Source: an uncultured Actinomycetes bacterium (GTDB lineage: Bacteria > Actinomycetota > Acidimicrobiia > IMCC26256 > DASPTH01). From it: a DNA stretch of 64,000 nt. The notes under the pieces were generated by a model. That model had not been told where the DNA came from. It saw only the letters and a program-made list of their open reading frames with translations, and did no database searches. A program made the position numbers and the translations under genes. The stretch is from the NCBI GenBank assembly GCA_963725775.1, contig CAVRZT010000001.1, forward strand, positions 675,568 to 739,567, in the 5' to 3' direction. The stretch's first letter is position 1; every line of letters starts with the position of its first letter. Of the stretch, positions 10,248-63,727 are shown one piece after another.

Positions 10248-10350
10248 GCCGCGACACTACGCGGTATGCCCGGCCCCGCCGCAGAGTTGGGCCGACCATG
10301 CGCGTCGGACTCATCGGATCCGCAGCCCGCTCGCTGCCGCTGGTTGATCG

Positions 10351-12624: not shown

Positions 12625-12673
12625 GACCGGAACGTAGGTCAGGTCATGACCCCGACGCCACCAGAGCGGGGCG

Positions 12674-14394
12674 CTACCGGGCGGTGACGGTGTCGGTGTC
12701 GCGACCGGAGCGCAGCACGACGCCCGGCGTGGCGCCGGTGGCTGCGCCGTCTTCGACGATCGGCACCCCGCCCACCAGCACGCGCACGATGCCCTTCGAA
12801 CCGGCGGTGAGCCGGGCCGAGTCGCCGGGCAGGTCGGCGACCAGCGTCGCGTCGTCGGCGTCGACGGTGGCGGGATCGAAGACGACGACGTCGGCGACCG
12901 CGCCCTCGCACAGCACGCCGCGGTCGCGCAGCCCGAACAGCGACGCCGGCGCGCTGGTGATGAGCTGGACCGCCCGCTCGAGCGACACCAGCTGACGACC
13001 ACGGAGGCAGTCGGCGAGGAAACGGGTCGTGTAGGGCGCGCCGCACATGCGGTCGAGGTGCGCGCCGGCGTCGGACCCGCCGATCATCGCCCGCGGGTCG
13101 TTCCACACCTCGCGGCGCAGGTCCCACGAGGACTCGTCGTCGTCCTGCGGGATGGGCCACAGGACGGTGCGCAACTCGTCGGCGATCACGATGTCGAGCA
13201 GCGTGCCGAAGTTCGACTGACCGCGCTCGCGCGCGATGTCGCGTACGACCCGACCGCGCAGCTCCTCGTTCTCGGGCGCGTACATGTCACCGAGGCGGTA
13301 GTCGCCGAAGTCGGCGAGGCGACGGAACACACCCGCCTCGGGCGACTGCGACCACTCGAGCATCTGCAGCCGGGTCTCGGGATCGCGGAGACGCACGATG
13401 CGCTCCGGCACCGGCACGCTGAGCACGTCGCTCCAGCCGGGGATCAGCCAGATCCCGCAGAAGTTGAGGAAGCTCATGTTCATCGGGACCTGCACCGGCA
13501 TGGTGAGCGCGACCAGCTGCCCGCCGAGCTCGCGGCGCGGTCGCCGGCCGAGAGCTGGCGCGGCACGCGCTCGGGTTCGCGCGCGTCGACGGTGAGCACG
13601 TTCCAGTTCAGCGGCCGGTTGGCCGCCGCGCTCACCGAGCCGAGCAGCTCGATCTCGTCGTCGGAGAACTGGTCGAGGCAGCCCTGCACGATGCCCTCGA
13701 GCGTGGTGCCCGGGTGCGCGCCCGTCTCCTCGCTCATGGCGAGGAGCTCCTCGGGCGTGGCCCAGCGGCTCGCTACCGGCTGGCCGTCGCCGTCGCTGTG
13801 CGACGACGACTGCGTGAACGAGAAGCCGAGCGCGCCGGCGTCGAGCGCGCGGCCGAGCTCGGCGCGCATCTCGGCGATCTGCTCGGTGGTCGCCTCGCTG
13901 CCGACCGCGTCGGCACCCATCACGTAGCGGCGGATGGCGCAGTGCCCGACGAGGAAGCCGGCGTTGACCGCGATCGTGCCCTCGAACCGGTCGAGGTACT
14001 CGGCGAAGGTCTCCCACTTCCAGTCGACGCCGTGCTCGAGCGCGGGGAGCGGCATGCCCTCGACCCGCGCCATCATCCGGCGCAGGTAGTCGGCGTCGCC
14101 GTCGCGCAACGGGGCGAGGGTGAAGCCGCAGTTCCCGCCGATGACGGTGGTGACGCCGTGCACGCTCGACGGGCTCGCGGTCGGGTCCCACAGCAGCTGC
14201 GCGTCGTAGTGGGTGTGCGGGTCGACGAAGCCGGGGGCGACGACCAGGCCGTCGGCGTCGACGACGGTGGCGGCGGGCTCGTCGATGGTGCCGATGGCGA
14301 CGATGCGCCCGTCGGCGATGCCGACGTCGGCGACCACCCCCGGCGCTCCCGTGCCGTCGACGACCGTCGCGCCCTTGATGATCTCGTCGAGCAT
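12674..14394 (-). pseudogene. N-acyl-D-amino-acid deacylase (D-aminoacylase)-family amidohydrolase, one frameshift
   Basis: The N-terminal piece (MLDEIIKGATVVDGTG..GFVDPHTHYD..NWNVLTVDAREPERVPRQLSAGDRAA) continues in another frame (ELGGQLVALTMPV..GGSDAGAHLDRM..). The switch is near 13530-13538 and is consistent with one missing C. Confidence 0.7.
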
Positions 14395-19345: not shown

Positions 19346-19996
19346 ATGTCTGAGCCGGTCAAGGCGCGCCCGTACCGCTCGTCGCTGCGGGATCGCCAGC
19401 GAGCGGTGACCCGCGCCGCGGTGGTCGACGCCGCCACGCGTCTGTTCGTCGAGCACGGATACGCGGGAACGTCGATCGCCAAGATCGCGACCGAGGCCGA
19501 CGTGTCACCGGAGACGGTGTACGCGGTGTTCGGCACCAAGCGCGAGCTCCTCAACGCCGTCGTGCACTCGGCCGCGACCGGTGTCGCCGAGGGAGGAGCC
19601 GTGGTCGAGGCGGAGCTGCTCGACCGGGTGCGGGCGGAACCCGACCAACGGCGGCGGTTCGACATGATGGCGGAGGCGACCCGCGACACCCTCCGGCGGG
19701 TGGGCCCGCTCGACGAGGTGGTGCGGGCGGCCGCGGTCGGTGATCCGGAGATCGCCGCGCTGCTGCGGGAACACGAGGCGCAACGCGTGGCCGATGCCCG
19801 GAAGCTCGTCGGGCTGCTGGCCGAGGCCGGTCCGCTCCGGGTGCCCGAACGGGAGGCCGCCGACCTGATGTGGGCGCTGTCGCGCAGCACCGACCTCTAC
19901 CGGGCGCTCACCGTCGACCGGGGGTGGAGCGACGCCCGGGCCTTCCGTGCCCTCAACGACGCCATCGCCCGCGTGCTGTTCCCCGACCCGAAGTGA
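19346..19996 (+). CDS. TetR-family transcriptional regulator
   Basis: 216 aa. HTH GYAGTSIAKIATEADVSPETVYAVFGTKREL. Confidence 0.85.
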   Translation: MSEPVKARPYRSSLRDRQRAVTRAAVVDAATRLFVEHGYAGTSIAKIATEADVSPETVYAVFGTKRELLNAVVHSAATGVAEGGAVVEAELLDRVRAEPDQRRRFDMMAEATRDTLRRVGPLDEVVRAAAVGDPEIAALLREHEAQRVADARKLVGLLAEAGPLRVPEREAADLMWALSRSTDLYRALTVDRGWSDARAFRALNDAIARVLFPDPK

Positions 19997-20072
19997 GCCA
20001 ACTGGTTTCCTCGGTCAAGTAGTCGATCGGCCCGAGACCCGCCATACTGGGGTCACACCAAGGAGTCGCAGC

Positions 20073-21278
20073 ATGGATGTCCCCCTGATCATCTCGGTCG
20101 ACGACCACGTCGTGGAGCCCCCCGATCTCTGGACCGAACGCATCCCGGCGAAGTTCAAGGACCGCGCCCCGCGCGTCGAGCGCGATTCGGCGGTCTTCCA
20201 CTTCGAGGGCGGCGTGTTCTCCTACGAGAAGGGCGTCGAGGGCGGCGAGCCGTGCGACTGGTGGCTCTACGACGACCTCGTGTACCCGTTCCCGAAGTTG
20301 TCGGCCGCGGTCGGCTTCTCCGAGCTCGACGTCACGCCCACCACGTTCGACGAGATCCGCCCGGGGTGCTGGATCAAGTCGGAGCGCATCGCCGACATGG
20401 ACGCCAACCACACCGAGGCGTCGGTCTGCTTCCCCAACACGCTGCCGCGCTTCTGCGGGCAGACGTTCCTCGAGCGTGACGACAAGGAGCTCGCGCTCCT
20501 GTGCGTGCAGGCGTACAACGACTGGATGATCGACGACTGGTGCGTGGGTGAGGGCAAGGGTCGGCTGATCCCGCTCACCATGGTGCCGCTGTGGGACGTC
20601 GAGCTCGCCGCCGCCGAGGTGCGCCGGTCCGCCGACCGCGGCAGCTTCGCGGTGACGTTCCCCGAGAACCCGTTCCCGCTCGGGCTGCCGTCGATCCACG
20701 ACAAGAACCACTACTGGGAGCCCTTCTTCCAGGCGTGCCAGGAGACCGACACCACGATCTGCATGCACATCGGCTCGAGCTCGAAGATGCCGACCACCTC
20801 GCCCGACGCACCGTTCATCGTGAGCTCCACGCTCACGTTCTCGAACGCGATGGGTTCGATGTGCGACTACATCTTCTCGGGCACGCTCGAGCGCTTCCCG
20901 ACGCTCAAGATCGCGTACTCCGAGGGCCAGGTCGGCTGGATGCCCTACGTGATGGAGCGGGCCGACAAGCTCGCGGCGGAGCGGTCCGACAACAGCTTCG
21001 GCACCAGTCTGCCGCAGCCGCCGTCGAGCTACGTGAGCCGGATCTACGGCTGCATCTTCGACGACGAGATCGGCCTCGCCAACCGCGACGTCATCGGTAT
21101 GGACCAGATCTGCTTCGAGACCGACTACCCGCACGCCGACTCGACCTTCCCGCACTCCAAGAAGGTGGCCGACGACATCTGCACCCAGGCCGGGCTCAAC
21201 GAGGAGGAGCGTTACAAGCTGCTCCGCGGGAACGCGATCACCGCGTTCGGCCTGGAGCGGTTCGGCATCACCAGTTAG
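20073..21278 (+). CDS. Amidohydrolase_2-type metal-dependent hydrolase (paralog of 4828..6033)
   Basis: 401 aa. ISVDDHVVEPP, LIPLTMVPLWDVELAAAEVR, MHIGSSSKMPTTSPDAP and FETDYPHADSTFPH are shared almost verbatim with 4828..6033. Confidence 0.85.
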   Translation: MDVPLIISVDDHVVEPPDLWTERIPAKFKDRAPRVERDSAVFHFEGGVFSYEKGVEGGEPCDWWLYDDLVYPFPKLSAAVGFSELDVTPTTFDEIRPGCWIKSERIADMDANHTEASVCFPNTLPRFCGQTFLERDDKELALLCVQAYNDWMIDDWCVGEGKGRLIPLTMVPLWDVELAAAEVRRSADRGSFAVTFPENPFPLGLPSIHDKNHYWEPFFQACQETDTTICMHIGSSSKMPTTSPDAPFIVSSTLTFSNAMGSMCDYIFSGTLERFPTLKIAYSEGQVGWMPYVMERADKLAAERSDNSFGTSLPQPPSSYVSRIYGCIFDDEIGLANRDVIGMDQICFETDYPHADSTFPHSKKVADDICTQAGLNEEERYKLLRGNAITAFGLERFGITS

Positions 21279-23083: not shown

Positions 23084-24186
23084 CTACGCGGGAACGGGTT
23101 GCGGCAGCTCGGCGAGCTGGTCGAGGTCGAACCCGAACACCTTGGCCGCGTTGCCGCTCACGATGGCGTCGAGGTCTTCCTGGCTGACGCCGTCGAACTG
23201 GTCGGCGTTCACGCTCTGCGACTCCGGCCACGTGCCTTCGGGGTGCGGGTAGTCGTTGCCCCACATGAGCGTCTCGACGCCGGTGATGCCGCGGTTGTTG
23301 ATCGCGACCGGGTCGTACATGAACGTCGCCGCGCACTGGCGCCGGATCAGCTCGCTCGGCTTGAGCGACAGCTTCGGCGACGCGTACATGCTGTGGTCCT
23401 CGTAGATCGCGTCGGCCTGCGTCATGATCCACGCCGAGCCACGACGCGCCGGTCTCGACGGTGACGATCTTCAGCTCGGGGAAGCGGTCGAGCGCGCCAC
23501 CGGCGGCGATCGTGAGCATCACCATGGGGCCGTCGAGCTGCGCGCCCATGAGGTAGTTGACGACCGCGCCGCCGGGGCCGCGCACCACGCGCGGCTCGTG
23601 GCCGGTGCCGGAGTGGAAGGTGAGCGGGAGGCCGAGCTCCTCGGCGACGGCCCAGAACGGGTCGTAGGCCGCGTCGTTGTAGGGCCGCTGACGGCACCTG
23701 GGCGGGAAGGAACAGCGCGCGGAAGCCCTGGTCGGCCACGACCTTGGCGTCTTCGATCGCGCCGTCGATGTCGAGCATCGACACCATGCCGACGGGGAGC
23801 AGCCGGTGGATCGTCGAACACGTCGCCGGCCCACGCGTTGTACGCGCGGCACAGCTGACGCTGGAACTCGGCGTCGTCGCTCGCGAAGCACGCCTGCAGC
23901 GCGAACGTCGGGAAGATCACCTCGGCGCTCACGCCGTCGCGGAGCCTGGTCGCGCAGACGGTCGTCGGCGTCGAAGTCGCCGACGATCGCGACCTCACGT
24001 TCGGACGCCGGCATCAGCTTGCGCGGCCCGAGACCCTTCGATCAGCAGGCGTGCGCCAGTCGCCGACGGTCTCGATGCGCGGGCACGCGGTCGCGGTACG
24101 CGGCGTCGACCCGCTCGCGCGTAGAGCTCGATCGGCTCGGTGACGTGCGAGTCGGTCGAGATGTAGATCGCGTCCCGATAGGTCAT
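23084..24186 (-). pseudogene. Amidohydrolase_2-type hydrolase, multiple frameshifts
   Basis: Recognisable pieces sit in all three frames. They are MTYRDAIYISTDSHVTEPIELY (24186), ERVDAAYRDRVP, RIETVGDWR, EVAIVGDFDADDRLRDQ and GVSAEVIFPTFALQACFASDDAEFQRQLCRAYNAWAGDVFDD. Further pieces are MVSMLDIDGAIEDAKVVADQGFRALFLP, YNDAAYDPFWAVAEELGLPLTFHSGTGHEP..VETGASW and a C-terminal WGNDYPHPEGTW. Confidence 0.75.
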
Positions 24187-24204: not shown

Positions 24205-25364
24205 TCAGGGGGAGAGGACCAGACCGCTCCGCCCCGCCGACACGAGCACGTGCTCGGCGCCGGCGATCTGGTTGGCTGCGGTGCCGCGGAGCTGGCGCAC
24301 GCCTTCGACGATGTTGTTCATCCCGTGGATGTAGCCCTCGCCGAGCAGCCCGCCGTTGGGGTTGACCGGGAGCCTTCCCGCCCACCCGATGTGGCCGTCG
24401 GCGATGAAGTCGCGGGCCTCGCCCCGCCCGCAGAAGCCGAAGGCCTCGAGCTGGAGGAACACGATCGGGGTGAAGTTCTCGTAGATCATGGCGACGTCGA
24501 TGTCGTCGGGCGTGAGGCCGGCTCGGCGTAGAGGCGCCGGCCCATCGCCGCCGCCTCCTGGTGCTCGCCGAGGTCCTGGTCGTAGTAGGCGAACATCTCG
24601 CTGCCGCCCTCGCAGGTGCGCCTGGGTGGCCGAGAGGATGTCGACGGGCACGGTGGATCGAGGTCGCGCGGCCCGGTCTGCTCGGGTGACCACCAGCGCG
24701 ACGCCGCCGTCGCTCTCCTGGCAGCAGTCGAGCTTGCGCAGGATGGGTTCGACGATCCAGCGACTGGCCTGGTGGTCCTCGAGGGTGATGGGCCGCTAGT
24801 AGAACGGGGCGTTCGGGTTGGTGCTGGCCCAGTCGCGGGCGACGACGGGTAGCGCCCGAAGTCGACGTTGGTGAGGTCGTGCTCGTGCATGTAGCGCTGG
24901 AAGCCAGAGGGCGTAGATCTTCGCCGGCGTGTCGAGCCCGAACGGCATGTGGAAGTTCCACGCCGGGTCGGGGTCACCCGCCCGTTGCTGCGGTTGGCCG
25001 AAGCGGTGGCCGGACCGCTCGTTGAAGGCGCGGTAGACGAGCACGGCGTCGGCGTGGCCGCTCTCCACGGCGGCGGCGGCGAGCTGCACGGTGGCGCACG
25101 CGCCGCCGCCGCCGCCACGCGTGCGGGCCGTGAAGCGCAGCTCGGGCACCCCGCGCACCGGATGAGCGCCAGCTCGTCGTTGCACGTCCATCGCGAAGGT
25201 GACGGCGCCGTCGATGTCGGCGCGGGGTGAGCCCGGCGTCGGCGGATCGCGGCGGCGACCGCTTCGGCCGCCAGCTGCAGGGTGCAGCGGCCCGAGTTCT
25301 GCGAGAACTCGGTGTGGCCGATGCCGACGATCACGGCGCGTCGCTCGGCGGGGACGTCGCTCAT
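24205..25364 (-). pseudogene. SCP-x/nsLTP-type thiolase-like protein, multiple frameshifts plus an in-frame TAG
   Basis: Pieces, part 1: MSDVPAERRAVIVGIGHTEFSQNSG, ADIDGAVTFAMDV, PELRFTARTRGGGGGACATVQLAAAAVESGHADAVLVYRAFNE, WNFHMPFGLDTPAKIYALW and FQRYMHEHDLTNVDFG. Pieces, part 2: VVARDWASTNPNAPFY-TAG(24796-24798)-RPITLEDHQASRWIVEPILRKLDCCQESDGG, GSEMFAYYDQDLGEHQEAAAMGRRLY and GLTPDDIDVAMIYENF..LPVNPNGGLLGEGYIHGMN. Confidence 0.75.
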
Positions 25365-25760
25365 CGGCGACTCCGAGCCGGCCGGCAGGAACTGCGGGAG
25401 CACGACGTCGTCGACGGTCGTCGATGCTCAGAGCGTCGACGGCCATGCCGTTGTGGATCCGTCGTCGGGCCGCGTCGATCAGGTTGGAGACGATGCGGGT
25501 GCCCGTCCTCGAGGTCGACGAGGATGACGACCCGCGGCTCGTCGTCGGGCTCGGTCGGATGGTGCGAGACGATCCACGTGGACGGTGCCGCGGCCGGTCG
25601 ACTCCAGCGTGTCGAACTCGAGCGAGCCGCAGCGGGCGCACATCGGCGCGGGAGGGTGGCGCACGATGCCGCACGCCGCGCAGCGCTGGATGAGCAGCGT
25701 CCCGTCGGCGATCGCCTCCCAGAAGAAGGCGTCGTCGCGGTCGGGGATCGGGGGCTTCAC
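25361..25760 (-). pseudogene. DUF35 (Zn-ribbon + OB-fold) protein, frameshifted
   Basis: GTG 25760: MKPPIPDRDDAFFWEAIADGTLLIQRCAACGIVRHPPAPMCARCGS (CxxC..CxxC ribbon). It continues in another frame (IVSHHPTEPDDEPRVVILVDLEDGTRIVSNL..). The 3' end is approximate. Confidence 0.6.
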
Positions 25761-25770
25761 GGCCGGGCAG

Positions 25771-28217
25771 TCATGCGCGCTCCTGGGTCGAGGGTGGCTG
25801 CTTGACGACGCGCGGCGAGCAGCTTGTCGATCGCGTCGTCGTCGTAGCCGAGCTCGTGCAGGATGGCGACGGTGTCCTGGCCGACGCATCAGCGGGGACC
25901 CGTGCACGACGGCCCGGCGTCTCGGAGAGGTCGAACAGGAGGCCCGACCTGCCGATGTCGCCCGACATGCGGGTGGCTGGTACTTCGTGACCCACCCCTT
26001 GTCGATCATCTCGGGGTCGTCGAACAGGTCGAGCACGAAGTCGGGCGTCGACGATCTCGCACGGCACGCCGGCGGCGTCGAGCGCGCGAACCAGTGCTCG
26101 GCGGTGCGCGATGCGGAACGCGGGCTCCGACGCGCGTCGAACGCGGTGTCGGCGGTCGAGCCCCGACGCCGAGGGCCGCCGCCGAGCGCCGGCGCGCTCG
26201 TCGTCGTCGACCGGCGGCGACGCACAGCCAGCCGTCGGCGGTCTCGTAGAGGCGGTGGCACGCGTGCCACCCCAGCTGCATCGCGATCGAGCTGCGGCCG
26301 GTCGCCGCGGTTGCCGTCGGCGTCGACTCCACGCGATCGACGTGTTGAGCAGGTGGGCGTACATGATCGATGGTGTCGACGAACTGGCCCTCGCCGGTGC
26401 GGTCGCGGTGGTAGAGCGCCTGCATGATCCCGATCGCCGACAGGAACCCGTTGCCGGTGTCGCCGAGCGACATGACGGTCCAGAACGGGATGCCGTCGTG
26501 GTCGAGGCCGCCGTCGACCCAGTCGAGGCCGGCGAGCGCGGCACCGGTCTGGTCGTTGCCCGGGGAGACCGTCGCGTTCGCCGGGTCGAAGCCGGCGCGT
26601 GTGGCAGTAGATCAGGTCGGGCTTGATCGCCGCAGGCTCTCGTAGTCGACGCCGAGGCGGACCGCGGCCTCGTAGCGCATGTTGTGCTGCACGACGTCGG
26701 CCGACTCGACGAGGCGGTGCAGGATCGCCATCGCGTCGGGGTCCTTGAGGTTCATCGAGATGCTGCGCTTGCCCCGGTTGCAGCACATCGCGATGTGGGT
26801 GCTCATCCAGTAGAAGTCGTGCAGCGGGTTGACCTTGATGACGTCGGCGCCGAGGTCGGCGAGCATCATCGTGCCCCACGGGCCGGCGATCGCGAGCCCG
26901 AGGTCGAGCACACGCACGCCCTCGAGCGGTGCGGTCAGGCGCCCCGCGTCGGCCGAGCGCGCGACGCGGCGGCCGGGCGCCGCGAGCGCGTCGGCCTCGG
27001 CGAGCACCTCGTCGGTGTCGGCGCCGAGGGCCGGAGGCGCGGCCGGCGCGTCGGTCGGGCACGCGTGCAGCTCGTAGACACGGCCCGACCTGACGGACCG
27101 GACCGAGCTCGGGGTCGATCGACCTCGATGACGCAGCCGTCGGCCAGGAACGCGGGGTCGTGCGAGGGCCTCCTCGGGCGACCGCACCGGCTGGAGGGGC
27201 ACGCCGACCTCGGCGCCGAGCTCGACCCACGGCTCCGCCGGGAACTTGGCGAAGGCCGCGGCCATCACCGGTTGGTAGTGGTGGAGCAGCAGCATCTCGT
27301 TGACGTCGATACCGATGCGCGTCGGTCGCTCTCGCGGGGCCGGGTCGTCTTCTCGGTGCGTGCACGCGGTCGCCCTCGGAGACGCCGAGGACGAAGTCGG
27401 GGAGGGGTACCCACTGGTGGATCCACCGGCCGTCGGCGCAGCGGAACACGCCCTTGCGGCCCGCGCGGATCGCCGATCCAGCTCTGGTAGTTCTCGGTCT
27501 CGACGTGCTCGACGCGCTGCCACGACGACGAGCGTGGTGGCGAGCACCCCCTGCAGCAGCGAGGTCGCGACCCGCTGGCCGCGACCGGTCTGCTCGCGCA
27601 CGCGGAGCGCGGCGCTGATCGCGATGGTGGCCAGGTAGCACGAGGCCAGGCTCACCCACGGCACGCCCGGCGAACAGCGGGCCCGGGCGCGCGGCGCGCC
27701 GACCCAGCAGTCGTCGGGCACGACGAGGTCGGCGAACGCCGGCGGGAGCCCGGCGAGGCGGGCGAGGGTGCCGCCGGGGACGCCGCGGCTCTCCCAGTGG
27801 TGGCCGGTGCGCGCCGCGACCAGGGCGTCGTAGCCGGGGCGATCGGCGTGACGGCCGTCGTCGCCGTAGGCCGTGATCGAGCAGTAGACGAGGCGCGGGT
27901 TGACCGCGTGCAGCGCGTCGAAGTCGAGGCCGAGGTCCGCGGTCGTGCCCGGGCGCGTAGCTCTCGACCAGCACGTCGGCGCGCGTCGCGAGCGCGAGCA
28001 GGCGGTCGCGGTCGGCGGCGTCGCGGAGGTCGAGCTCGACGCTGCGCTTGCCGCGGTGCCAGACCTGCGCGCCCGAGAACGCGCGGGTCGGGTCGCCGCC
28101 GGGCGGCTCGATCTTGGTGACGCGCGCGCCGTGGTCGGCGAGCAGCATGCCGGTCATCGGCCCCGCGATCCCCGTGGTGAGGTCGAGGACGTCGACCCCG
28201 TCGAGCACTCCGGTCAT
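25771..28217 (-). pseudogene. Two tandem family-III CoA-transferase modules (fused or adjacent), more than a dozen frameshifts
   Basis: Module 1 starts MTGVLDGVDVLDLTTGIAGPMTGMLLADHGARVTKIEPPGGD at 28217 (ATGA overlap with the upstream stop). Module 2 starts LEGVRVLDLGLAIAGPWGTMMLADLGADVIKV near 26930 with no stop between the modules in that frame. Conserved pieces alternate among all three frames, for example KGVFRCADGRWIHQWVP, IGIDVNEMLLLHHYQP, IDPELGPVRQVGP, MSLGDTGNGFLSAIGIMQALYHRDRTGEGQ and PDFVLDLFDDPEMIDKGWVTKYQ. Confidence 0.7.
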
Positions 28218-29145: not shown

Positions 29146-29871
29146 GTGGACGTCAGCGGCATCATCTTCGCGTCGGTCGACTGCGACGCCGACGCGATCG
29201 AAGACTGGAACCGGTGGTACGACCTCGAGCACCTGCCGCCGAACATCGCGCTGCCGGGGATCATGACCGGCAAGCGCTACGTCGCGCCGCCTGAGCTGCA
29301 CGACGTGCGCGAACCGGCGAACCGGCTCGACGGCTTCGCCGACGGTCGTGGCGTCCACGTCACCGTGTACACGCTCGCCGGCGATCCCGCGCAGGTGCTC
29401 GCCGACATGACGAGTTACCGCGACAAGCTCGAGGACGCCGACCGGATGTTCGCGCCGGAGAAGAAGGTCGTGCGGGCCGGCGACGCGATGACGTGGACGT
29501 GGGGCGTGGCCGATCCGACGTTGAAAGCCGATCCCGGCGACGTGCCCCACGTGCAGCACACCTCGATCCGCGTGGTCCTGCGCCACGGAGGCGACGACGA
29601 AGCGCGTGACACCGTCGCACCCACGGCTGTCGCCGTCGACGGTGTGCACGCGGTGCTCGGTCACCGGTCGATCACCGATACGACGCTCGACTGCGACCTC
29701 TACCTGCTCGAGGGTGACCCCGCGGCGGTGACGCGCGCCGCGCGTGCCGCCGCGCCGTACGGCGCCGGCACCGACGTCGTGCTCGACGCGCCGTTCCGGC
29801 TCATCGTGCCGTTCGACTACGGCTTCGCCGACGCGATCCGGGCGAGCTTGCTGCCCCAGACCATCGCCTGA
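29146..29871 (+). CDS. Hypothetical protein, NRWY-x-x-(D/E)H family (member A)
   Basis: 241 aa, GTG start. N-terminal IIFASVDCDADAIEDWNRWYDLEHLPPNIALPGIMTGKRY. Distant paralog of 51564..52376. Confidence 0.65.
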   Translation: MDVSGIIFASVDCDADAIEDWNRWYDLEHLPPNIALPGIMTGKRYVAPPELHDVREPANRLDGFADGRGVHVTVYTLAGDPAQVLADMTSYRDKLEDADRMFAPEKKVVRAGDAMTWTWGVADPTLKADPGDVPHVQHTSIRVVLRHGGDDEARDTVAPTAVAVDGVHAVLGHRSITDTTLDCDLYLLEGDPAAVTRAARAAAPYGAGTDVVLDAPFRLIVPFDYGFADAIRASLLPQTIA

Positions 29872-51563: not shown

Positions 51564-52376
51564 CTACCAGAGCTCGTCGGTGTACTTGTCGGTGCCGAAC
51601 TCGGTCTGGATGAACGGGCCGGTCCAGACGTGGGTGGCGAGACCGCTGTCGTTGATCGCCTGGCCGATCTTGGCGTAGCCGTCGGCCCAGCCCTCCTCGG
51701 GGTCGTGATCGAGGAAGTGCAGCTGGAGGAACCGGTTCGGTCCGGCCGCCGGGGGCGGCACGTCGGCGGGACGGTCGTCGAGGAGGGGCAGCGTCGTCGC
51801 GTCGAGCACGACGTCGGGACCCCACGGCTCGCCGAACGTGCCCGGGAGGTATGTGTCGCGGAACCAGGCGTCGACCTCGTCGTGCGTGTGACCCTCCTTC
51901 ACGTCACCCGCGACCACGACGAGGCCCGGGTAGTTGTGGTCGAGCGCGAGCTCGATGGTGCACGTGTCGTCGGCCTTGCGCTCGGCCCACCGCTTCTCGT
52001 AGAGCAGCGTGTGGACGTGGGTGCGCTGCTCGAACATGCGCCCGTTCTGGTGCAACCAGGTCACCTGCTCGACCGCCCACCGGTTCCACTCGTCGTGCTT
52101 GCCTTCGAGCACCCAGTAGATCGCGAGGTACGAGCCGACCTGGTTGTCGGCGGTCATGTCGCTGCCCGCGGGGTAGCGCAACGCCTTCATCCGCCGGGTC
52201 GCGACGAACCGGTCTCCCGCGAACTGCCATTCGCCGACCATGCAGCCTGAATAGAAGTGATCGTGCTCGTACCAGCGGTTGTACTCGACCTCCCGGCCCT
52301 TCTCGGGCTCGACCATCGTGAAGAGCAGGGTCCCGAGCTTGATCGGGTAGTCCTCCATGCCGGGAATCGCTTCCAT
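51564..52376 (-). CDS. Hypothetical protein, NRWY-x-x-(D/E)H family (member B)
   Basis: 270 aa. LLFTMVEPEKGREVEYNRWYEHDHFY, with a second EWNRW further in. RBS GAGGGAG. Confidence 0.7.
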   Translation of the reverse strand: MEAIPGMEDYPIKLGTLLFTMVEPEKGREVEYNRWYEHDHFYSGCMVGEWQFAGDRFVATRRMKALRYPAGSDMTADNQVGSYLAIYWVLEGKHDEWNRWAVEQVTWLHQNGRMFEQRTHVHTLLYEKRWAERKADDTCTIELALDHNYPGLVVVAGDVKEGHTHDEVDAWFRDTYLPGTFGEPWGPDVVLDATTLPLLDDRPADVPPPAAGPNRFLQLHFLDHDPEEGWADGYAKIGQAINDSGLATHVWTGPFIQTEFGTDKYTDELW

Positions 52377-55922: not shown

Positions 55923-57111
55923 ATGGCTGCTGAGATCGGCGGACAGGTCGAACCGGGCTTCGAAGGAGTGCGCGACGCGTTCGCGAGCAACTTCGAGGAA
56001 CAGGGCGAGGTCGGGGCGAGCTACGCGTTCTACGTCGAGGGGACCAAGGTCGTCGACCTCTGGGGTGGGGTCCGCACCGACACCGGTGGCGCGTACGACC
56101 ATGACACGTTGCAGATCGTGTTCTCGTCGACCAAAGGTGCCACCGCCGCGTGCGCCCACCTGCTCGCACACCGCGGGCTCCTCGACGTCGACGCGCCGGT
56201 GGTCACGTACTGGCCCGAGTTCGGTCAGGCGGGCAAGGAGCACATCCCGGTGCGCTGGTTGCTCAGCCACCAGGCCGGGTTGCCGACGGTCGACGCCAAG
56301 CTGACGCGGGAAGAGGCGTTGGCGTGGGAGCCGGTGATCCACGCGCTCGAGGTCCAGGCGCCCTATTGGGAACCGGGCGTCGCGCACGGGTACCACACGC
56401 TCACGTACGGACACCTCGTGGGTGAGGTCGTGCGGCGCATCGACGGCCGGAGCCTCGGCACGTTCTTCCACGACGAGATCGCCGAGCCGCTCGGGCTCGA
56501 GTTCTGGATCGGGCTGCCCGAGGAGCTCGACGCACGCGTCGCGCCGATGATCCCGATGGGCACCGCCGACGGGCCGAGCGTCGAGGACCTGCTCGGTGCC
56601 GACGCGATGGTGGTGCGCGCGCTCACGCTCAACGGTGCGCTGTCGGGCGACCTCGCCTCGAACGCCAACCAGCGCGACTTCCGCGCCGCCGAGCTCCCGG
56701 CGGCCAACGGCGTCGCCAACGCGCGGTCGCTGGCACGGTTGTACGCCGGCCTGATCGGCGGTGTCGACGGCGGTCCGTCGGAGGGGCTCCTGTCGCCGGA
56801 GCAGATCGATCATGCCGCGCACGTTGCAGACGGCGGGTGCCGACCAGGTGCTGTCGTTCCCGGGCATCGATGTCGAGTCGACGATCGCGCTCGGCTTCTG
56901 GTCGGCGTCGCCGTTCGCGCCGATGGGTGGCGTGCACTCGTTCGGGCACTTCGGCGCCGGAGGCTCGGTCGGCTTCGCCGATCCCGAGCACCGCGTCGCC
57001 GGCGGCTACGTGATGAGCAAGATGAACATGGGCATCTCCGCCGACCCGCGATCGAGCGCGCTCATCCGGGCCAGCTACGAAGCCGCCGGGGCCACCATCA
57101 CCCACGTGTGA
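55923..57111 (+). pseudogene. Serine hydrolase (beta-lactamase/EstB family), one frameshift
   Basis: SSTKG (SxxK) and YHTLTYG motifs. After ..LLSPEQIDHA the sequence continues in ORF 56761..57111 (RTLQTAGADQVLSFPGIDVES..HFGAGGSVGFADP). The switch is near 56813. Confidence 0.75.
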
Positions 57112-58114
57112 GCGCGCGCGTGAGCCAGTCGACATCCTCCAGCCCGCGGAGGACGTCGTTGAGGTGGGTGCACGTGGTCGGGCCCACGAGCTGCGTACGC
57201 ACCTCGGGCCGGAGGTCGAGCACGCGCACGCCGACGATCCGCTCCGCGCTCCCGATCGCCTGTGGGCACTCGCGCCACGGCAGGACGCGCGGCACTGCAA
57301 TGCACGCCACGACGGTCATCGTCTCGGGGTCGACGGTCGTGTCGACGGTGTACTCGTGCACCACCGTCTCCTGACCCTCGGGTGACATGACGCTGTCGCG
57401 GAAGAACACGTCGGCGTGCACGAGGTCGTCGCGCCACACGTCGATCCGGCGGGCGCGCCGCGTCGCATCACCGGGGAGCGGCGCCACCTGGTGCCAGGCC
57501 TCCGGATCGTCGTCGTCGAGCACGGGGAGCGCCACCGGACCGAGCAGCATCGGCGGACGGCCGTCGACCAGGTTGTCGAGCAGGGTGCCGTCGGCCTGCC
57601 AGCCGGCGCAGAGATCGGCGATCTGTAGCCTCGGCTGGGATCGCATGCGCTCCCGGAACTCCTCGAGTTCGGCGTCGCCGCGGTCGGCGGCGGTCGTCAT
57701 CGCCACGCCGGACACCAAGGTCGCGCCGGGCACGTCGTCGAGGAGCAGGTAGGGGAGCGAGCCGCGCCGGGCGCCGGTCTGGAGATCGAGGACCTTGCGG
57801 AAGCCACCGCCGGCGCGCGCGCCGATCAGCGTGTCGAGCCCGTCGACCGCGGGCGTCATCGTGAGCTCGCGCACGAGCGTGCCGAGCGTGTAGTCGGTCA
57901 CGACGTGCATCTCCGCCGTCGCCACCACCGCGGCGGTGCCGTCGGCGCCGGTGAAGAGGTCGCGGGCCAGCCCGAGCTGGTGCACCGGACCGGTGAAGCC
58001 CTCGGGACGCGACGAATCGATGGTCGACGTGCGGCGGATGGATCCAGGACGGCGGGCGGGGGTCCCCGAGGTGGGATCAGCGGTGCCCTGCCGGGGGTCG
58101 GCGGGTTCAGGCAC
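57098..58114 (-). CDS. DUF2889-like protein
   Basis: C-terminal GPTTCTHLNDVLRGL resembles the DUF2889 signature as I recall it. The start is uncertain (GTG 58114 overlaps the upstream gene end by 8 nt). Confidence 0.55.
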   Translation of the reverse strand: MPEPADPRQGTADPTSGTPARRPGSIRRTSTIDSSRPEGFTGPVHQLGLARDLFTGADGTAAVVATAEMHVVTDYTLGTLVRELTMTPAVDGLDTLIGARAGGGFRKVLDLQTGARRGSLPYLLLDDVPGATLVSGVAMTTAADRGDAELEEFRERMRSQPRLQIADLCAGWQADGTLLDNLVDGRPPMLLGPVALPVLDDDDPEAWHQVAPLPGDATRRARRIDVWRDDLVHADVFFRDSVMSPEGQETVVHEYTVDTTVDPETMTVVACIAVPRVLPWRECPQAIGSAERIVGVRVLDLRPEVRTQLVGPTTCTHLNDVLRGLEDVDWLTRALTRG

Positions 58115-59279
58115 CCGGAGCCGGCGGCACGTGCGGGAACAGCTCGGCGAAGGCGCCGACGGTGATGCGGCGGCGGGCCGCGTCGTCGACGTCGTCGAAC
58201 AATTCGTGCAGCACCTTCTGGCTGTGGCCGAACGTGCCTTCGAGGTGCGGGTAGTCACTGCCCCACATCACGTTCTGCCAACCCATCGCGGTGTTGGCGT
58301 GCACCGCCGAGCGGTCGTGCTGGAACGATGCGTACACCTGGTCGTAGAGGTACTCGCTCGGCAGCTTCGAGAGCTTCGGTCGGGTGGCGAACCCGTGCTG
58401 GCGGTAGGCCTCGTCCATGCGGTCGGCGAGGAACGGCCCCCACGTCGCGCCGCCCTCCGACACGAGCACCTTGAGATCGGGGTGACGGTCGAGTGCACCC
58501 GACGCGATCAGCTGGGTCGTGCAGCGCTGACCGCCGTAGGTCGTCTCGACGTAGTTGAGCACCGCGCCGCCCGGGCCGCGGAAGTAGACGCCGGTCGACT
58601 CGTCGGGGGTGTGCGGCTCGGTGCCGATGTGGAAGCCGAGCACCATGCCGGTCTCCTCGGCGGCCGCCCACACGGGGTGCCACAGGTCGTGGTGGTACGG
58701 CGGCATGTCGAACGGCTGACCGGTCGTCATGAAGACGACCTTGAAGCCGAGGTCGGCGGCGCGGTGGATCTCGGCGACGGTGTCGTCGACGTCGAGCAGG
58801 GGCAGGGTCGCCGCGCACACGAACCGCGGCGAGGTGCGCTGGAACTCGATCGCCCAGTCGTTGAGCACCTTCACGCCCTCGCGCACGAGCTTGGGGTCGC
58901 GGATCGAGAACGCCCACGTCGCGAGCGACGGGTAGATCACCTCGCCCCAGATGCCTTCCTCGTCGAGGTCCACGAGGCGCAGCTTCGGGTCGTTGGCGCC
59001 GGGCGCGCGTGTGAACACCTCGACGAAGCCGACGGCCTCCGCGTCCTTCGGCTTCTTGCTCAGCTCCTCGATCTCCTCGGGGGTGTAGTCGGTACGGATC
59101 CGCGGCATGCGCCGCCGGAACGTCTGGCCGTCGACGTGGATCGTCTCGTGGCTGCCGTCGTCGTCCTTGACGCTGCGGGGCATGCGCTCGGCCAGATCGG
59201 CGGGGAGGTTCTTGGCGAACAGATCCGCCGGCTCGGTCAGGTGGGAATCTCCGGAGTTGGCCCAGATCTTGCCGTCCAT
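58107..59279 (-). CDS. Amidohydrolase_2-type metal-dependent hydrolase
   Basis: 390 aa, intact. NSGDSHLTEP, FHIGTEP, WGSDYPHLEGTF. Confidence 0.85.
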   Translation of the reverse strand: MDGKIWANSGDSHLTEPADLFAKNLPADLAERMPRSVKDDDGSHETIHVDGQTFRRRMPRIRTDYTPEEIEELSKKPKDAEAVGFVEVFTRAPGANDPKLRLVDLDEEGIWGEVIYPSLATWAFSIRDPKLVREGVKVLNDWAIEFQRTSPRFVCAATLPLLDVDDTVAEIHRAADLGFKVVFMTTGQPFDMPPYHHDLWHPVWAAAEETGMVLGFHIGTEPHTPDESTGVYFRGPGGAVLNYVETTYGGQRCTTQLIASGALDRHPDLKVLVSEGGATWGPFLADRMDEAYRQHGFATRPKLSKLPSEYLYDQVYASFQHDRSAVHANTAMGWQNVMWGSDYPHLEGTFGHSQKVLHELFDDVDDAARRRITVGAFAELFPHVPPAPGA

Positions 59280-59346
59280 GCGCGCGCTCCTTCAGGTGGG
59301 CTCGGGCCCCGTGCGGGTGCCCGGCCGTGATCCCGTCAGCATAACC

Positions 59347-59361
59347 GAAAACTGCGTTTTC
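59347..59361. other. A/T-rich palindrome GAAAAC-TGC-GTTTTC
   Basis: 6-bp perfect arms overlapping the DUF35 stop codon. Followed by an 80-nt gap before the amidohydrolase start. Confidence 0.25.
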
Positions 59362-59806
59362 AGATAGCCGACGGCCGGAAGACGGGCAGAGCCGATTCGC
59401 CGTCGCCGAGAGGCTCGAAGCCGACCGTCACCGCGAGGCCGATCACGAGCTCGTCGCGGGTGACACCGTCGACCCGGGTCAGCACCCGCACCGGTTCGCC
59501 CTGGGTGCCGTCGAGCTCGACGACGGTGATGTTGTACACGCCGAGGTGCGCCAGCTGCGGGGTCACCGGCCGGTCGACCCAGGTGTAGGTGTACACGTGG
59601 CCGGTGCCCGGCACGTCGGCCCACGACCACTGCAGCGACTGGCACGAGTAACACGCCTCGGTCGGAGGGTGGCGGTGGGTTCCGCAGTCGTCGCAGCGCT
59701 GGATGACGAGCCGGCCGTCGCGCGCGGCGCGCCAGTAGCCCTCGCTGGTCGGTTCGAGCGCGGGCCAGGGCAGCCCGCGCGGGGCGACGGCGTCACTTGT
59801 GGTCAT
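59360..59806 (-). CDS. DUF35 (Zn-ribbon + OB-fold) protein
   Basis: 148 aa. GRLVIQRCDDCGTHRHPPTEACYSCQS ribbon followed by an OB-fold region (YTYTWVDRP..NITVVELD). Confidence 0.8.
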   Translation of the reverse strand: MTTSDAVAPRGLPWPALEPTSEGYWRAARDGRLVIQRCDDCGTHRHPPTEACYSCQSLQWSWADVPGTGHVYTYTWVDRPVTPQLAHLGVYNITVVELDGTQGEPVRVLTRVDGVTRDELVIGLAVTVGFEPLGDGESALPVFRPSAI

Positions 59807-59808
59807 GA

Positions 59809-61010
59809 TCACCGGTCCTTGCTGATGATGAGGCCGCTGCTGGGCGACGGGCTGGAGCCGGCGATGACCAACACGTTCTCGGCGTCGGGCACCTGGTTGT
59901 TGGCGTCGCCCCGCACCTGATGCACCGCTTCGAACACGTGGGTCATGCCGTGGGCGTAGACCTCGGCGAGATTCCCGCCGTGGGTGTTCACCGGCAATCT
60001 GCTCCCGAGGCGCAGGTTCCCGTCGGCGACGTACGGGCCACCCTCGCCCTTCGGGCAGATGCCGAAGTCCTCGAGCGACATGATCGCCATCGCGGTGAAG
60101 TGGTCGTACACCATGACCGCGTCGAGATCGGCGACGTCGCGACCGCTCACGCGGTAGAGCTCCTCGGCGGCGGCGCGCTGTCCCGCGGACGCGAAGTCGT
60201 CGTCGGGCATGTTGTAGCTGCCCATCAACGCGTGGCCGTACCGGTAGGGCGCCGCGCCGACCGCACCCGCGAGGTACGCAGGCGACTGGCGGAGGTCCTT
60301 CGCGCGTTCGGCGGTGGTGACGATCGCCGCGCAGCCGTAGTCGGATTCCATGCAGAAGTCGAAGAGGCGCAGGGGATCGGCGATCATCGGGCTGGCGTGA
60401 TGGTCCTCGATCGTGCACGGAACGCGGAAGCGCGCTTCGGGGTTGTTGGCGGCCATGAGCCGCGCGTTGATCGTGACCTCGGCGAACTGGTCGTGGGTCG
60501 TGCCGTACCGGTGCATGTGCCGGCGCGCCGCCAATGCGAACATCTGGCCCGGCGACTGCAGGCCGTAGGGCACCGCGAACGCCATCGGTCCCGGGATCAC
60601 CGGGTTCTTCATCCCGATCTGCCCGAACGCCTGCCCGTAGCGGTTGTGGCCCTCCATGGTCATGACCTTGTGGACCACGACGTAGTTGGCCTGCCCGCTC
60701 GCGACCGCGAGCGTGGCGTTGAGGAAGGCTCCCCCCATGGCCCCACCGCCGCCACCCCAGGTCTGGGTCGCGAAGCGCAGTTGCTCCGCGCCGAACGCGG
60801 TGAAGAGCTCGGCCGGGTCGATGTTGGTGACGTACGAGCTGTACCCGTCGACCTCGCGGGCGAGATGCCGGCGTCCTCGCACGCGTTCGTGATCGCCTCG
60901 ACCACGAGGCGCAGGTGACCCTTCGCCGTGTGCTCGCCCCGCTTGCCCCAGGGCGTGTGCCCGATGCCGGCGACGGCGGTGCGGCCGCGCAACCACGTGC
61001 CGGCGTCCAT
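59809..61010 (-). pseudogene. SCP-x/nsLTP-type thiolase-like protein, one frameshift near the 5' end
   Basis: The N-terminus MDAGTWLRGRTAVAGIGHTPWGKRGEHTAKGHLRLVVEAITNACEDAGISP is in ORF 60660..61208. The rest (REVDGYSSYVTN..THGGNLAEVYAHGMTHVFEAVHQVRG) is in ORF 59809..61047. The switch is at the CCC run near 60866. Confidence 0.75.
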
Positions 61011-61112: not shown

Positions 61113-62235
61113 GTGTTGCAACTCGGACTCCGACTCGAGCTCTACCGGTCCGCGACCATCCGGGTGCCCTACGACCTGGTGCAGCTCGCCGAGCGGCTCG
61201 GCTTCCACTCGGTGTGGACAGCCGAGGCGTACGGGGCCGATGCGATGACCCCGCTGGCGGCGATCGCGGCCACCACCGAGCGCATCAAGCTGGGAACGGC
61301 CGTGGTGCAGCTGGCCGGTCGCCCGCCGGCGATGCTCGGCATGCAGGCGATGACGGTCGACGCGCTGGCCGGCGGCGGGCGCATGATCGTGGGCATCGGC
61401 CTCTCGGGCCCGCAGATCGTCGAGGGGTGGTACGGCCAGCCGTGGGGCAAGCCCAACGCGCGGTCTGCGCGACTACGTCACGATCCTGCGTGACGTCCTG
61501 CGGCGCGAAGGTCCGGTCACCCACGACGGTCCGGAGATCTCGCTGCCGTACGCCGGTCCCGGCGCGCTGGGCCAGGGCAAGCCGCTGAAGTCGATCCTGC
61601 ACGCGCTGTCCGACATCCCGATCTGGCTGGCGTCGGTAGGTCCGCGCAACACCGCGCTCTGCGCCGAGCTGTGCGACGGCTGGTTGCCGATGGGCCTGCC
61701 GCCTCGGGGCACCGACGACCCCGACGTCGCCACCGCCCTCGACGCCGGCTTCGCCCGTCGCACCGACGGCCGCGGTCCCGGCACCTTCGACGTGTTCAAC
61801 GGGCTCACCGTGAAGATCACCGACGACGTCAAGGGCTGGCTCGACAGCATCCGCCCGTACCGCGCCACGTACGTCGGCGGCATGGGCAGCGCGTCGCACA
61901 ACTACCACGTCGAGTCGATGGCCAAGCGCGGCTTCGCCGACGACGCGGCGCGCATCCAGGAGCTGTTCCTCGCCGGCCGGCGCGAGGACGCGATCGCGGC
62001 GATGCCCGATGAGGCGCTGCTCCAGGGCACGCTGGTCGGCACGCCCGCGAGCATCCGGCAGCAGTGGGAAGCGGGTGGCATCGTGCCGCCGGGCGTCACC
62101 GGTGTCATCGTGGGAGCAGATCGGCCCGACGAGCTCGAGCTCGTCGCCGAACTCACGGGAGCACGAGAAGATGCAGTGGAGGCGTGGCCGGATGGCCGGG
62201 ACGCCGGAACGGAATCGACCGATCGAAATGGCTGA
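61113..62235 (+). pseudogene. LLM-class F420-dependent oxidoreductase, one frameshift
   Basis: MLQLGLRLELY..FHSVWTAEAYGADAMTPLAAIAATTERIKLGTAV..GWYGQPWGKPNAR then continues in another frame (LRDYVTILRDVLRREGPVTHDG..DGWLPMG..). The switch is near 61461. The 3' end is uncertain. Confidence 0.7.
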
Positions 62236-63727
62236 GCTGCGCGACGACTGGGACTCCACCCTCGCCGACCTCGAGCAGCGCCGGGCCGCCGGTCGCGCCA
62301 TGGGCGGGCCCGAGCGGCTGGCCAAGCACCACGGTCAAGGGAAGCTCGACGCCCGCGCCCGCATCGACGCGCTCGTCGACCCCGGTTCCTTCATGGAGCT
62401 GGGCACGTTGACGGGAGGCGACGAGGCACCGTCCGAAGCCATCGTGCTCGGCTCGGGTCGCGTGAGCGGTCGTCCCGTGATCGTCGCCGCCGAGGACTTC
62501 ACCGTGCTCGCGGGCACGATCAGCCACACCGCGAACTCGAAGCGCTACCGCGCCGCGGAGCTCGCGGTGCGCGACCGGGTGCCGTTGGTGATGATGCTCG
62601 ACGGCGCCGGCTTCCGGGCCGACGGCAAGGTGTACGGCCGGGCACCGACCGACCTGCTGTCGCAGTCGCGCTGCTCGGGCCAAGTGCCGCTCATCACCGC
62701 GGTGCTCGGCTCGTCGGCCGGTCACGGCGCGTTGGTCGCACCCATGTCCGACTTCTCGGTGATGAGCGCGGACGCGGCCATCTTCACCGCCGGCCCGCCG
62801 GTGGTGCTCGAGTCGCTGGGCGAGACGGTCACCAAGGAGGACCTCGGCGGACCGTCGGTCGCGATTCCGAGTGGCCTCATCCACAACGTGGCGCCCGACG
62901 ACGAGGCCGCGCTCGAGCTCGTGCGGCTCTACCTCAGCTACTTCCCGTCGTCGGCGTGGTCGTACCCGCCCGACTACACCCACGACGACACCGCGCCGCG
63001 CCTCGTCGAGGAGATCCTCGACATCGTGCCTCGCGACGGCAAGCGCGTGTACGACGTGCGTGACGTCATCGACGTGGTCGTCGACCAGTCGTCGTGGTTC
63101 GAGGTGCAGCCCGACTTCGGCAAGTCGGTCGTCACCGCGCTCGCGCACCTCGGGGGCCACCCGGTCGCGGTCATCGCCAACCAGCCCCAGGTGTTCGCGG
63201 GCTCCATCGACGTCGACGGCGCCGACAAGGCATCGCACTTCATCACCGTCGCCGACTCCTTCCACCTGCCTCTGGTGTTCCTCGCCGACAACCCCGGCGT
63301 GCTGCCCGGCACCGCGTCGGAGCGCCGCGGCATCCTGCGCGCCGGTGCGCGGATGTTCGCGGCGCAGACGATGGCGACGGCACCGAAGTTCGAGGTGACC
63401 CTGCGTAAGGCCTACGGCTTCGGCTCCATGGTGATGGGCATGATCGGCTTCGACAACCAGTCGGCCGTGTTCGCACTGCCCGGCGCCACGATGGGCGCGA
63501 TGGGCGCGGCGGCGATGAGCCGGTCGCGCGGCTCCGACGTCGACGAGGCCGAGTTGCTCAAGAAGATGGAGCTCGAGGCGTCGTACCGCTCGGCGCAGGG
63601 CTTCGGCTTCGACGAGCTCATCGACCCGCGGGAGATCCGCAACGTGCTGCTGCACTCGCTCGAGCGCGCGCTGTACCAGCGCCAGACACCGGCCGAGCCG
63701 GTCCGGCGCGTGGCGATCACGCCGTAG
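62228..63727 (+). CDS. Acyl-CoA carboxylase carboxyltransferase (beta) subunit
   Basis: About 499 aa. GGPERLAKHHGQGKLDARARIDALVDPGSF and paired crotonase-like domains. Alternative start ATG 62171. Confidence 0.85.
   Translation: MAELRDDWDSTLADLEQRRAAGRAMGGPERLAKHHGQGKLDARARIDALVDPGSFMELGTLTGGDEAPSEAIVLGSGRVSGRPVIVAAEDFTVLAGTISHTANSKRYRAAELAVRDRVPLVMMLDGAGFRADGKVYGRAPTDLLSQSRCSGQVPLITAVLGSSAGHGALVAPMSDFSVMSADAAIFTAGPPVVLESLGETVTKEDLGGPSVAIPSGLIHNVAPDDEAALELVRLYLSYFPSSAWSYPPDYTHDDTAPRLVEEILDIVPRDGKRVYDVRDVIDVVVDQSSWFEVQPDFGKSVVTALAHLGGHPVAVIANQPQVFAGSIDVDGADKASHFITVADSFHLPLVFLADNPGVLPGTASERRGILRAGARMFAAQTMATAPKFEVTLRKAYGFGSMVMGMIGFDNQSAVFALPGATMGAMGAAAMSRSRGSDVDEAELLKKMELEASYRSAQGFGFDELIDPREIRNVLLHSLERALYQRQTPAEPVRRVAITP

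Follow-up and report, generated by a model that had tools for sequence, protein, structure and literature searches.

Which reaction could be served by a thiolase-like gene, a DUF35 gene, an amidohydrolase gene and a DUF2889 gene that follow one another on the same strand? This question is raised by a minus-strand run at 61010–57098 of a 64,000-nucleotide stretch of contig CAVRZT010000001.1, which belongs to an uncultured Actinomycetes bacterium. The whole stretch is called the window below. Its G+C content is ~70%, and the nearest matches of its proteins are found in metagenome-assembled genomes (MAGs) of the Acidimicrobiia/Acidimicrobiales. The four families, proposed for 58–61 kb in an earlier note on this DNA, were all confirmed by Pfam together with their coordinates (Table 1). 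The Pfam labels of the thiolase-like and the Amidohydro_2 genes are nevertheless misleading. We consider it fairly probable that the operon is a cassette that encodes a two-step, O2-dependent route for breaking a C–C bond in a CoA-activated carboxylic acid, in which the first reaction would be catalysed by the ‘amidohydrolase’ and the second by the thiolase-like protein with its DUF35 partner.

The Amidohydro_2 protein is most likely a PtmU3-type non-haem diiron oxygenase. It matches PtmU3 in the PDB (6OMP) over the full length with an E-value of 1.5e-113, and DitZ with 1.6e-26. Both are amidohydrolase-related dinuclear oxygenases (AROs), whose defining motifs are D-x-H in the N-terminal and D-x-P-H-x-D/E in the C-terminal part; the loop carrying the latter is reported to be absent from the characterised hydrolases and decarboxylases of PF04909 (PMC10811679, PMC13154177). 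PtmU3 from Streptomyces platensis (6OMP/6OMQ), the founding ARO, has the PF04909 TIM barrel in common with the window protein. Its D-S-H is aligned to D11-S12-H13 and its DYPHLE is identical to D342-Y-P-H345-L-E347. D11, H13 and the complete second motif are invariant in 24 homologues, as are H217 (FHIGT) and E275 (VSEGG), which align to IHIGT and IAEAG of PtmU3. The latter two, as the remaining His and bridging carboxylate ligands, were assigned by analogy with AibH2 (PMC7782822). A Ser as the middle residue of D-x-H, as in PtmU3, marks the diiron, high-potential class (PMC13154177). Unlike PtmU3, the window ARO has an insertion of ~33 residues (approximately residues 57–89). The diterpenoid hydroxylases of the DitZ type (8UYR) belong to the same superfamily and diiron class, the match being distant; the electron paramagnetic resonance experiments on DitZ used dehydroabietic acid, not a CoA ester (PMC13154177).

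The earlier note had considered the amidohydrolase as a decarboxylase, hydratase or ring hydrolase. A non-oxidative decarboxylase, hydratase or lactonase of PF04909 would then handle the substrate or product of a retro-Claisen or retro-aldol step carried out by the thiolase/DUF35 pair. Pfam does assign Amidohydro_2, and LigW, ACMSD, gamma-resorcylate decarboxylase and LigI/LigJ share this family and the TIM barrel with the window ARO. However, LigW and ACMSD are weak PDB matches only (E 1e-8 to 1e-11), and PtmU3 is more than 100 orders of magnitude closer than any decarboxylase. The D-x-P-H-x-E motif is present and the ligands of the dinuclear site are all invariant in the family, whereas the PF04909 decarboxylases and hydrolases have a mononuclear or metal-free site and no D-x-P-H-x-D/E (PMC10811679, PMC13154177). 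The protein is probably neither a decarboxylase nor a hydrolase, and we regard this explanation of the operon as very improbable.

For the thiolase-like protein, the best PDB match is the steroid side-chain aldolase Ltp2 of Thermomonospora curvata (TcLtp2, 6OK1_A; E 2e-80), and the best-scoring NCBIfam model is PRK07855 (‘lipid-transfer protein’), which is of the Ltp2 type. The Y-D-H-F motif is kept (MVYDHFTAM, aligned to ILYDHFTPL of TcLtp2), as is the second catalytic Tyr (AEVYAHGM, aligned to GEAYIHGM). In TcLtp2, Tyr294 of Y-D-H-F is the catalytic base, the His of the same motif forms the oxyanion hole, and Tyr344 is the second catalytic Tyr (PMC12329534). The label ‘SCP-x-type thiolase’, which the gene had received before, does not apply: both the nucleophilic Cys of the C-A-T-G type and the C-terminal catalytic His/Cys are absent from the window protein, but present in the true thiolases encoded by neighbouring genes at two other loci (L002 and L034). 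Where those proteins have C-A-T-G, the window protein has GGGGGAMGG, and its residues 60–130 hold no Cys. The earlier note had left the choice between a retro-Claisen and a retro-aldol module. C–C cleavage as such is supported for the thiolase-like/DUF35 pair by these alignments, and the retro-aldol reaction is favoured over the retro-Claisen reaction by the presence of the catalytic motif of Ltp2 and the lack of any nucleophile Cys motif of the thiolase type.

The DUF35 protein fits this assignment. Its best PDB match is ChsH2(DUF35) (6OK1_B; E 2.5e-20), so that both chains of the Ltp2–ChsH2(DUF35) complex are the top solved relatives of the pair. It has the zinc ribbon Cys-x2-Cys-x10-Cys-x2-Cys (RCDDCGTHRHPPTEACYSCQ) and, through OB_ChsH2_C, the OB fold. 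Its ATG follows the stop codon of the thiolase-like gene after 2 nt, not 3 nt as previously stated. In contrast to ChsH2, the protein is free-standing and carries no fused MaoC hydratase, and its gene has the ARO and DUF2889 genes as neighbours, not ChsE/ChsH. Other thiolase-fold systems with a DUF35 partner were compared as well. The bile-acid aldolase Sal–Shy(DUF35) of Comamonas testosteroni is likewise a thiolase-fold retro-aldolase, but has Y-D-C-Y, a catalytic Cys and a Cys3His finger (PMC12329534), whereas the residues of the window pair are those of the Ltp2 type and its finger is of the Cys4 type. BbsAB and the archaeal thiolase/HMG-CoA synthase/DUF35 complexes (7PXP, 6ESQ) share the thiolase fold and the DUF35 scaffold; their matches are weaker (E 1e-18 to 1e-21, in comparison with 2e-80 for Ltp2), and C-A-T-G is not found in the window protein.

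To what extent the oxygenase and the aldolase pair belong together was analysed from both sides. On the ARO side, 80 GTDB genome loci were sampled, and AROs with at least 50% identity to the window ARO were taken as close. The thiolase-like/DUF35 pair was located within 10 kb of a close ARO at 22 of 38 loci, within 3 kb at 14 and directly adjacent at seven, but at none of 36 loci with distant AROs (Fisher 1.2e-8). The exact gene order of the window recurs at three GTDB loci, among them one of the cultured Acidiferrimicrobium sp. IK. Most ARO-linked pairs are of the Ltp2 type (Y-D-H-F), while a few loci have true C-A-T-G thiolases instead. On the aldolase side, 80 metagenome loci were found with the thiolase-like protein, 43 of them with enough flanking sequence. 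DUF35 follows the thiolase-like gene at 74 of the 80. At 28 loci (15 of the 43 with enough flank), an ARO gene whose product has D-Y-P-H-x-E is an immediate neighbour. With T for the thiolase-like and D for the DUF35 gene, the orders are ARO-T-D (14 loci), T-D-ARO (6), T-ARO-D (3–4) and divergent (3), and the adjacency spans several phyla, including sphingomonads and one Myxococcota MAG. Frequent neighbours are CoA-pathway genes, namely those for short-chain dehydrogenases/reductases, acyl-CoA dehydrogenases (ACAD), fused CoA-transferases III, enoyl-CoA hydratases and acyl-CoA ligases. The proposal of the earlier note that the three families constitute a conserved functional unit is supported by these data, as synteny extends to many other genomes and includes several gene orders, even those with the ARO between T and D. 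The outcome that the note had named as a refutation, synteny confined to this genome, was thus not observed.

The order T-ARO-D was seen in metagenome loci L094, L096 and L101. It hints that all three proteins are co-expressed as one complex.

Chance co-occurrence in genomes that are rich in all three families would require no functional link. Four ARO-type genes occur in the window alone, together with several genes for CoA-transferases, ACADs and hydratases, and loci of Acidimicrobiia are dense in such genes. Against this, the pair was found at 25 of 46 loci of closer AROs and at none of the 36 distant ones, the orthologous pair is adjacent in several orders and phyla, and the trio occurs in a biosynthetic cluster as well (see below). 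We consider an accidental association extremely unlikely.

The following course of reactions is proposed from homology and, for the second step, also from gene linkage. With O2 and two electrons, the ARO would introduce a hydroxyl group at the beta-carbon of an acyl-CoA. Such a step would serve where the dehydrogenase/hydratase route is blocked, for instance by a quaternary alpha-carbon with a ring-junction C–H as beta-carbon. The Ltp2-type aldolase, in complex with DUF35, would then cleave the resulting tertiary beta-hydroxyacyl-CoA, which is not oxidisable to a ketone and would therefore be open to retro-aldol cleavage. The expected products are a ketone and an alpha-branched acyl-CoA, and a ring would be opened if both carbons are part of it. 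DUF2889 would be a fourth component, translationally coupled to the oxygenase and perhaps a metal-binding partner. PtmU3 is described as a beta-hydroxylase which accepts CoA-linked diterpenoid intermediates (PMC7782822), and its C-5 hydroxylation prepares the cleavage of the A ring (PMC13599519). Chemistry of this kind is thus proposed for the A ring of platensimycin, and the latter study proposes the sequence of CoA-ligation, C-5 hydroxylation and retro-aldol cleavage for the catabolism of Ambrox, with the aldolase postulated and not assigned.

A number of results weigh against this two-step reading. We infer the consecutive order of the steps from gene linkage alone, and the compared loci are phylogenetically non-independent. 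No pair was found within 10 kb at 16 of the 38 close ARO loci. The closest relative, represented by two Illumina contigs (L085 and L086), shares the flanks of the window cassette, and its ARO is 92% identical to that of the window; ARO and DUF2889 are intact there, but most of the pair is deleted: thiolase residues 1–99 are fused to DUF35 residues 106–146 (L085:8242–8659 and L086:3007–3424). In comparison with window positions 61010–59360, this is a deletion of ~1.2 kb, identical in two independent samples. Conversely, thiolase-like, DUF35 and DUF2889 genes stand in a row without ARO in L087 (5287–8032), with 30 nt at the ARO site, and the presence of the ARO gene therefore varies between close lineages. 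From L085/L086 and L087 it follows that the four genes are a variable set and not an obligate operon. No gene for an electron donor (Rieske ferredoxin or reductase) is conserved near the cassette. The PRK07855 score of the thiolase-like protein (368 bits) is below the cut-off of 469, which indicates a related subfamily and not a strict Ltp2 orthologue. The thiolase-like protein of a platensimycin/platencin-like cluster (L084, see below) has Y-D-P-N instead of Y-D-H-F and is 35% identical to that of the window. Finally, the thiolase-like gene of the window is split into two frames, residues 1–52 (61010 to ~60855) and the rest (60855–59812), with the break at ~60858.

An alternative is an ARO and a pair that act in one pathway at non-consecutive steps. 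The pair could, for example, attack a side chain after a dehydrogenase/hydratase step, and linkage would reflect pathway clustering. At many loci the linkage is indeed loose (1–7 kb) or absent, the ARO occurs without the pair in L085/L086 and the pair without the ARO in L087, and the common ACAD pairs, enoyl-CoA hydratases and MaoC-type neighbours could feed the aldolase. On the other hand, adjacency is tight and co-directional at ~28 metagenome and seven genome loci, including those with the ARO between T and D, and beta-hydroxylation yields the very type of tertiary beta-hydroxyacyl-CoA that is cut by Ltp2 (PMC12329534). We therefore take non-consecutive action to be rather unlikely, though deserving consideration, and continue to favour hydroxylation followed directly by retro-aldol cleavage.

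The author of the earlier note was not aware of a characterised pathway coupling the three families. This has to be corrected: a platensimycin/platencin-like cluster on a metagenome contig (L084; ENA ERZ25039530 contig_6170, 123296–144366), which encodes a protein 99% identical to PtmU3, contains all three on the plus strand within 4 kb (ARO 10001–11071, Thiolase_C_1 12671–13828, DUF35 13828–14229). The Thiolase_C_1 protein (385 aa) and the DUF35 protein (133 aa) start 1.6 kb downstream of the PtmU3 gene, with an acyl-CoA ligase gene in between. Terpene synthases, P450s and TauD, ACAD and MaoC genes are found further on the same contig. The ARO of this cluster is ~50% identical to that of the window. 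Both AROs thus have thiolase-fold and DUF35 genes close by, but the operon of the window looks catabolic and has no terpene synthases, and its ARO is coupled to DUF2889. A ptm-type context (terpene synthases, P450/TauD tailoring, genes for 3-amino-2,4-dihydroxybenzoate, ADHBA) was not found among the scanned window neighbours, which are ACAD, peptidase, beta-lactamase-like, luciferase-like monooxygenase and carboxyltransferase genes with no ptm-type cluster. The two enzyme types have been described before, and the platensimycin-type cluster has the trio as well; the window cassette is a catabolic-looking version of it. In our literature searches we found no account of the pairing of a PtmU3-type oxygenase with an Ltp2-type aldolase, of its wide distribution or of a link to DUF2889.

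The acyl-CoA ligase and the TauD gene of the platensimycin/platencin-like contig were each called in two pieces.

We take polycyclic terpenoid acids (ring A with the carboxyl at C-4) as the foremost candidates for the substrate of the window cassette, and the side chain at C-17 of a steroid as a less likely one. In the latter case, the ARO would hydroxylate C-17 of a pregnene-20-carboxyl-CoA-type ester in place of ChsE/ChsH, and the aldolase would release propionyl-CoA. The solved Ltp2–ChsH2(DUF35) enzyme (T. curvata 6OK1; Mycobacterium tuberculosis Ltp2) is such a steroid side-chain retro-aldolase. With Y-D-H-F, the second Tyr and the Cys4 ribbon partner, the window pair is closest to TcLtp2–ChsH2DUF35, the best NCBIfam model is of the Ltp2 type, and relatives have adjacent ACAD pairs near the cassette, which we read as belonging to the type that acts on bulky CoA esters. 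The window pair differs from this enzyme, however, by the free DUF35 (not fused to a ChsH2 hydratase), the oxygenase neighbour, the PRK07855 score under the cut-off and the frameshifted gene. Moreover, the alpha-carbon of the steroid bears a hydrogen, so that an oxygenase is not needed, and genes for steroid ring degradation were not seen among the window genes scanned. A steroid side chain is in our judgement an unlikely target, and a terpenoid acid remains the preferred one.

The DUF2889 protein was analysed separately. The likeliest start of its gene is the GTG at 58114, which gives an 8-nt overlap with the ARO stop codon and a length of 338 aa (homologues, 330–345 aa). Invariant residues in the alignment of homologues include C169, C271, C283, C315, H253, H317, E254 and E282. 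The AlphaFold model (pLDDT 83.8) has a two-repeat beta/alpha fold, for which no counterpart was found in the PDB by fold or by sequence. A C-T-H-L stretch resembles what we take to be box I of the Rieske proteins of cytochrome bc1. DUF2889 genes are often translationally coupled to Amidohydro_2 genes, as in the window and, with a 4-nt overlap, in L088. They are linked to Amidohydro_2/ARO genes in L085/L086, L088, L089 and L008; in L087, L033, L134 and L153, the linked genes are those of the aldolase pair. That DUF2889 is a metal-binding or electron-transfer partner of the oxygenase is speculation.

Tentatively, a more general picture can be drawn. ARO, Ltp2-like aldolase and DUF35, with or without DUF2889, may represent a widespread, as yet undescribed bypass by hydroxylation and subsequent retro-aldol cleavage, used where beta-oxidation is blocked at quaternary alpha-carbons. 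It may open ring A of terpenoid acids in uncultured Acidimicrobiia, other Actinomycetota and sphingomonads; the pair may be the unassigned aldolase by which the ring is opened in platensimycin biosynthesis and in labdanoid/Ambrox catabolism, and DUF2889 may be a new metal-binding partner, possibly an electron donor. If this is true, many proteins from Acidimicrobiia and further bacteria of soil and water which are annotated as ‘amidohydrolase’ and ‘lipid-transfer protein/thiolase’ become an oxygenase–aldolase pair. The Ltp2-like/DUF35 pair is a concrete candidate for the enzyme that opens ring A after C-5 hydroxylation, the aldolase that the 2026 Ambrox study only postulates (PMC13599519). Abundant uncultured Actinomycetota would have a possible route for the degradation of acids of the terpenoid or resin type that contain quaternary carbons, and DUF2889 acquires a testable context.

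The triad is present twice in the window, as stated in the earlier note. The second copy has the order DUF35′ > thiolase-like′ > Amidohydro_2′ (~25790–23084, minus strand) and is 35–45% identical to the first, so the copies are old paralogues. Fragments of a CoA-transferase III and of a SnoaL (NTF2-like) protein lie upstream of it, as had been described. The thiolase-like′ protein shares 35–40% identity with its first-copy counterpart and with homologues from metagenomes, and the C-terminal part of ARO′ has its best matches (62–69% identity) among AROs of the L048, L103 and L091 type. The claim that one copy is decayed is correct in that the second copy is badly broken; the implied counterpart, an intact first copy, does not hold, as its thiolase-like gene is frameshifted in the assembly. 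When one base is restored there, a 400-aa protein results which is 90% identical from end to end to the intact 400-aa orthologue of L087. Nucleotide alignment identifies the lesion as a 1-nt deletion (CCC in the window, CCCC in relatives). As the aldolase gene of the window is frameshifted, the cassette is either miscalled in the assembly or recently inactivated. A frameshift common to the window and L085/L086, as expected for an old pseudogene or for programmed frameshifting, was considered and rejected: the lesions differ (one extra nucleotide at codon ~44 in L085/L086, one missing at codon ~51 of the window gene) and are independent.

Further frame changes occur around the first copy. The luciferase-like gene has one extra T at 61464 relative to the intact 354-aa orthologue of L085, and the frame of the beta-lactamase-like gene changes at ~56800. 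The background of frame-breaking lesions is ~3 in 9 kb, in comparison with at least 10 in 2.7 kb of the second copy; over the operon at 22–28.5 kb, the density of indels is much higher than elsewhere. Split genes are also found in related long-read MAG loci (L046, L033, L039 and L008). The frameshifts of the window are either errors of long-read assembly or the result of real, uneven pseudogenisation.

Table 1. Position and assignment of the cassette genes, their second copy and other genes of the window.
Feature	Position	Strand	Remarks
Ltp2-type thiolase-fold aldolase gene (‘thiolase-like’), putative	59809..61010	–	Thiolase_C_1 E 1.5e-31; 400 aa after 1-nt repair
Stand-alone DUF35 protein, presumed aldolase partner	59360..59806	–	148 aa; zf-ChsH2 E 9.8e-13 and OB_ChsH2_C E 5.3e-12
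ARO, most likely PtmU3-type	58107..59279	–	390 aa, intact; Amidohydro_2 PF04909 E 2e-27
DUF2889 protein	57098..58114	–	338 aa; PF11136 E 7.8e-25
Luciferase-like monooxygenase gene, divergent from cassette	61113..62235	+	Bac_luciferase matched in two frames; frameshift by 1-nt insertion at 61464
Acyl-CoA carboxylase carboxyltransferase subunit, conserved neighbour	62228..63727	+	Carboxyl_trans E 5e-101
DUF35′ (second copy)	~25400..25790	–	tblastn 25778–25435; at least two frames
Thiolase-like′ (second copy)	24205..25364	–	Y-E-N-F and second Tyr; in-frame stop 24796–24798; N-terminus in other frame; local frame changes
ARO′ (second copy)	23084..24186	–	D-S-H, D-Y-P-H-P-E; at least four frame segments
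DitZ-type ARO gene (Amidohydro_2)	4852–6030	+	S-V-D-D-H-V-V-E-P; D-Y-P-H-T-D
DitZ-type ARO gene (Amidohydro_2)	19947–21275	+	S-V-D-D-H-V-V-E-P; D-Y-P-H-A-D

In L085/L086 (L085:5587–8149), the luciferase-like and carboxyltransferase genes have the same divergent position relative to the cassette as in the window. Beyond them, relatives have an APH-like kinase gene and an adjacent pair of ACAD genes. To the left of the cassette, ACAD, zinc peptidase and beta-lactamase-like genes are followed by housekeeping genes; the cassette is therefore small and lies outside any large island on that side. Of the four ARO-type genes of the window, two are DitZ-like paralogues, in which the motifs read D-D-H and D-Y-P-H-x-D. 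Two proteins of ~240–270 aa, encoded at 29146–29871 (plus strand) and 51564–52376 (minus strand), have the motif N-R-W-Y-x-x-E-H in common and no Pfam match; they may belong to an unnamed family that occurs twice in the window.

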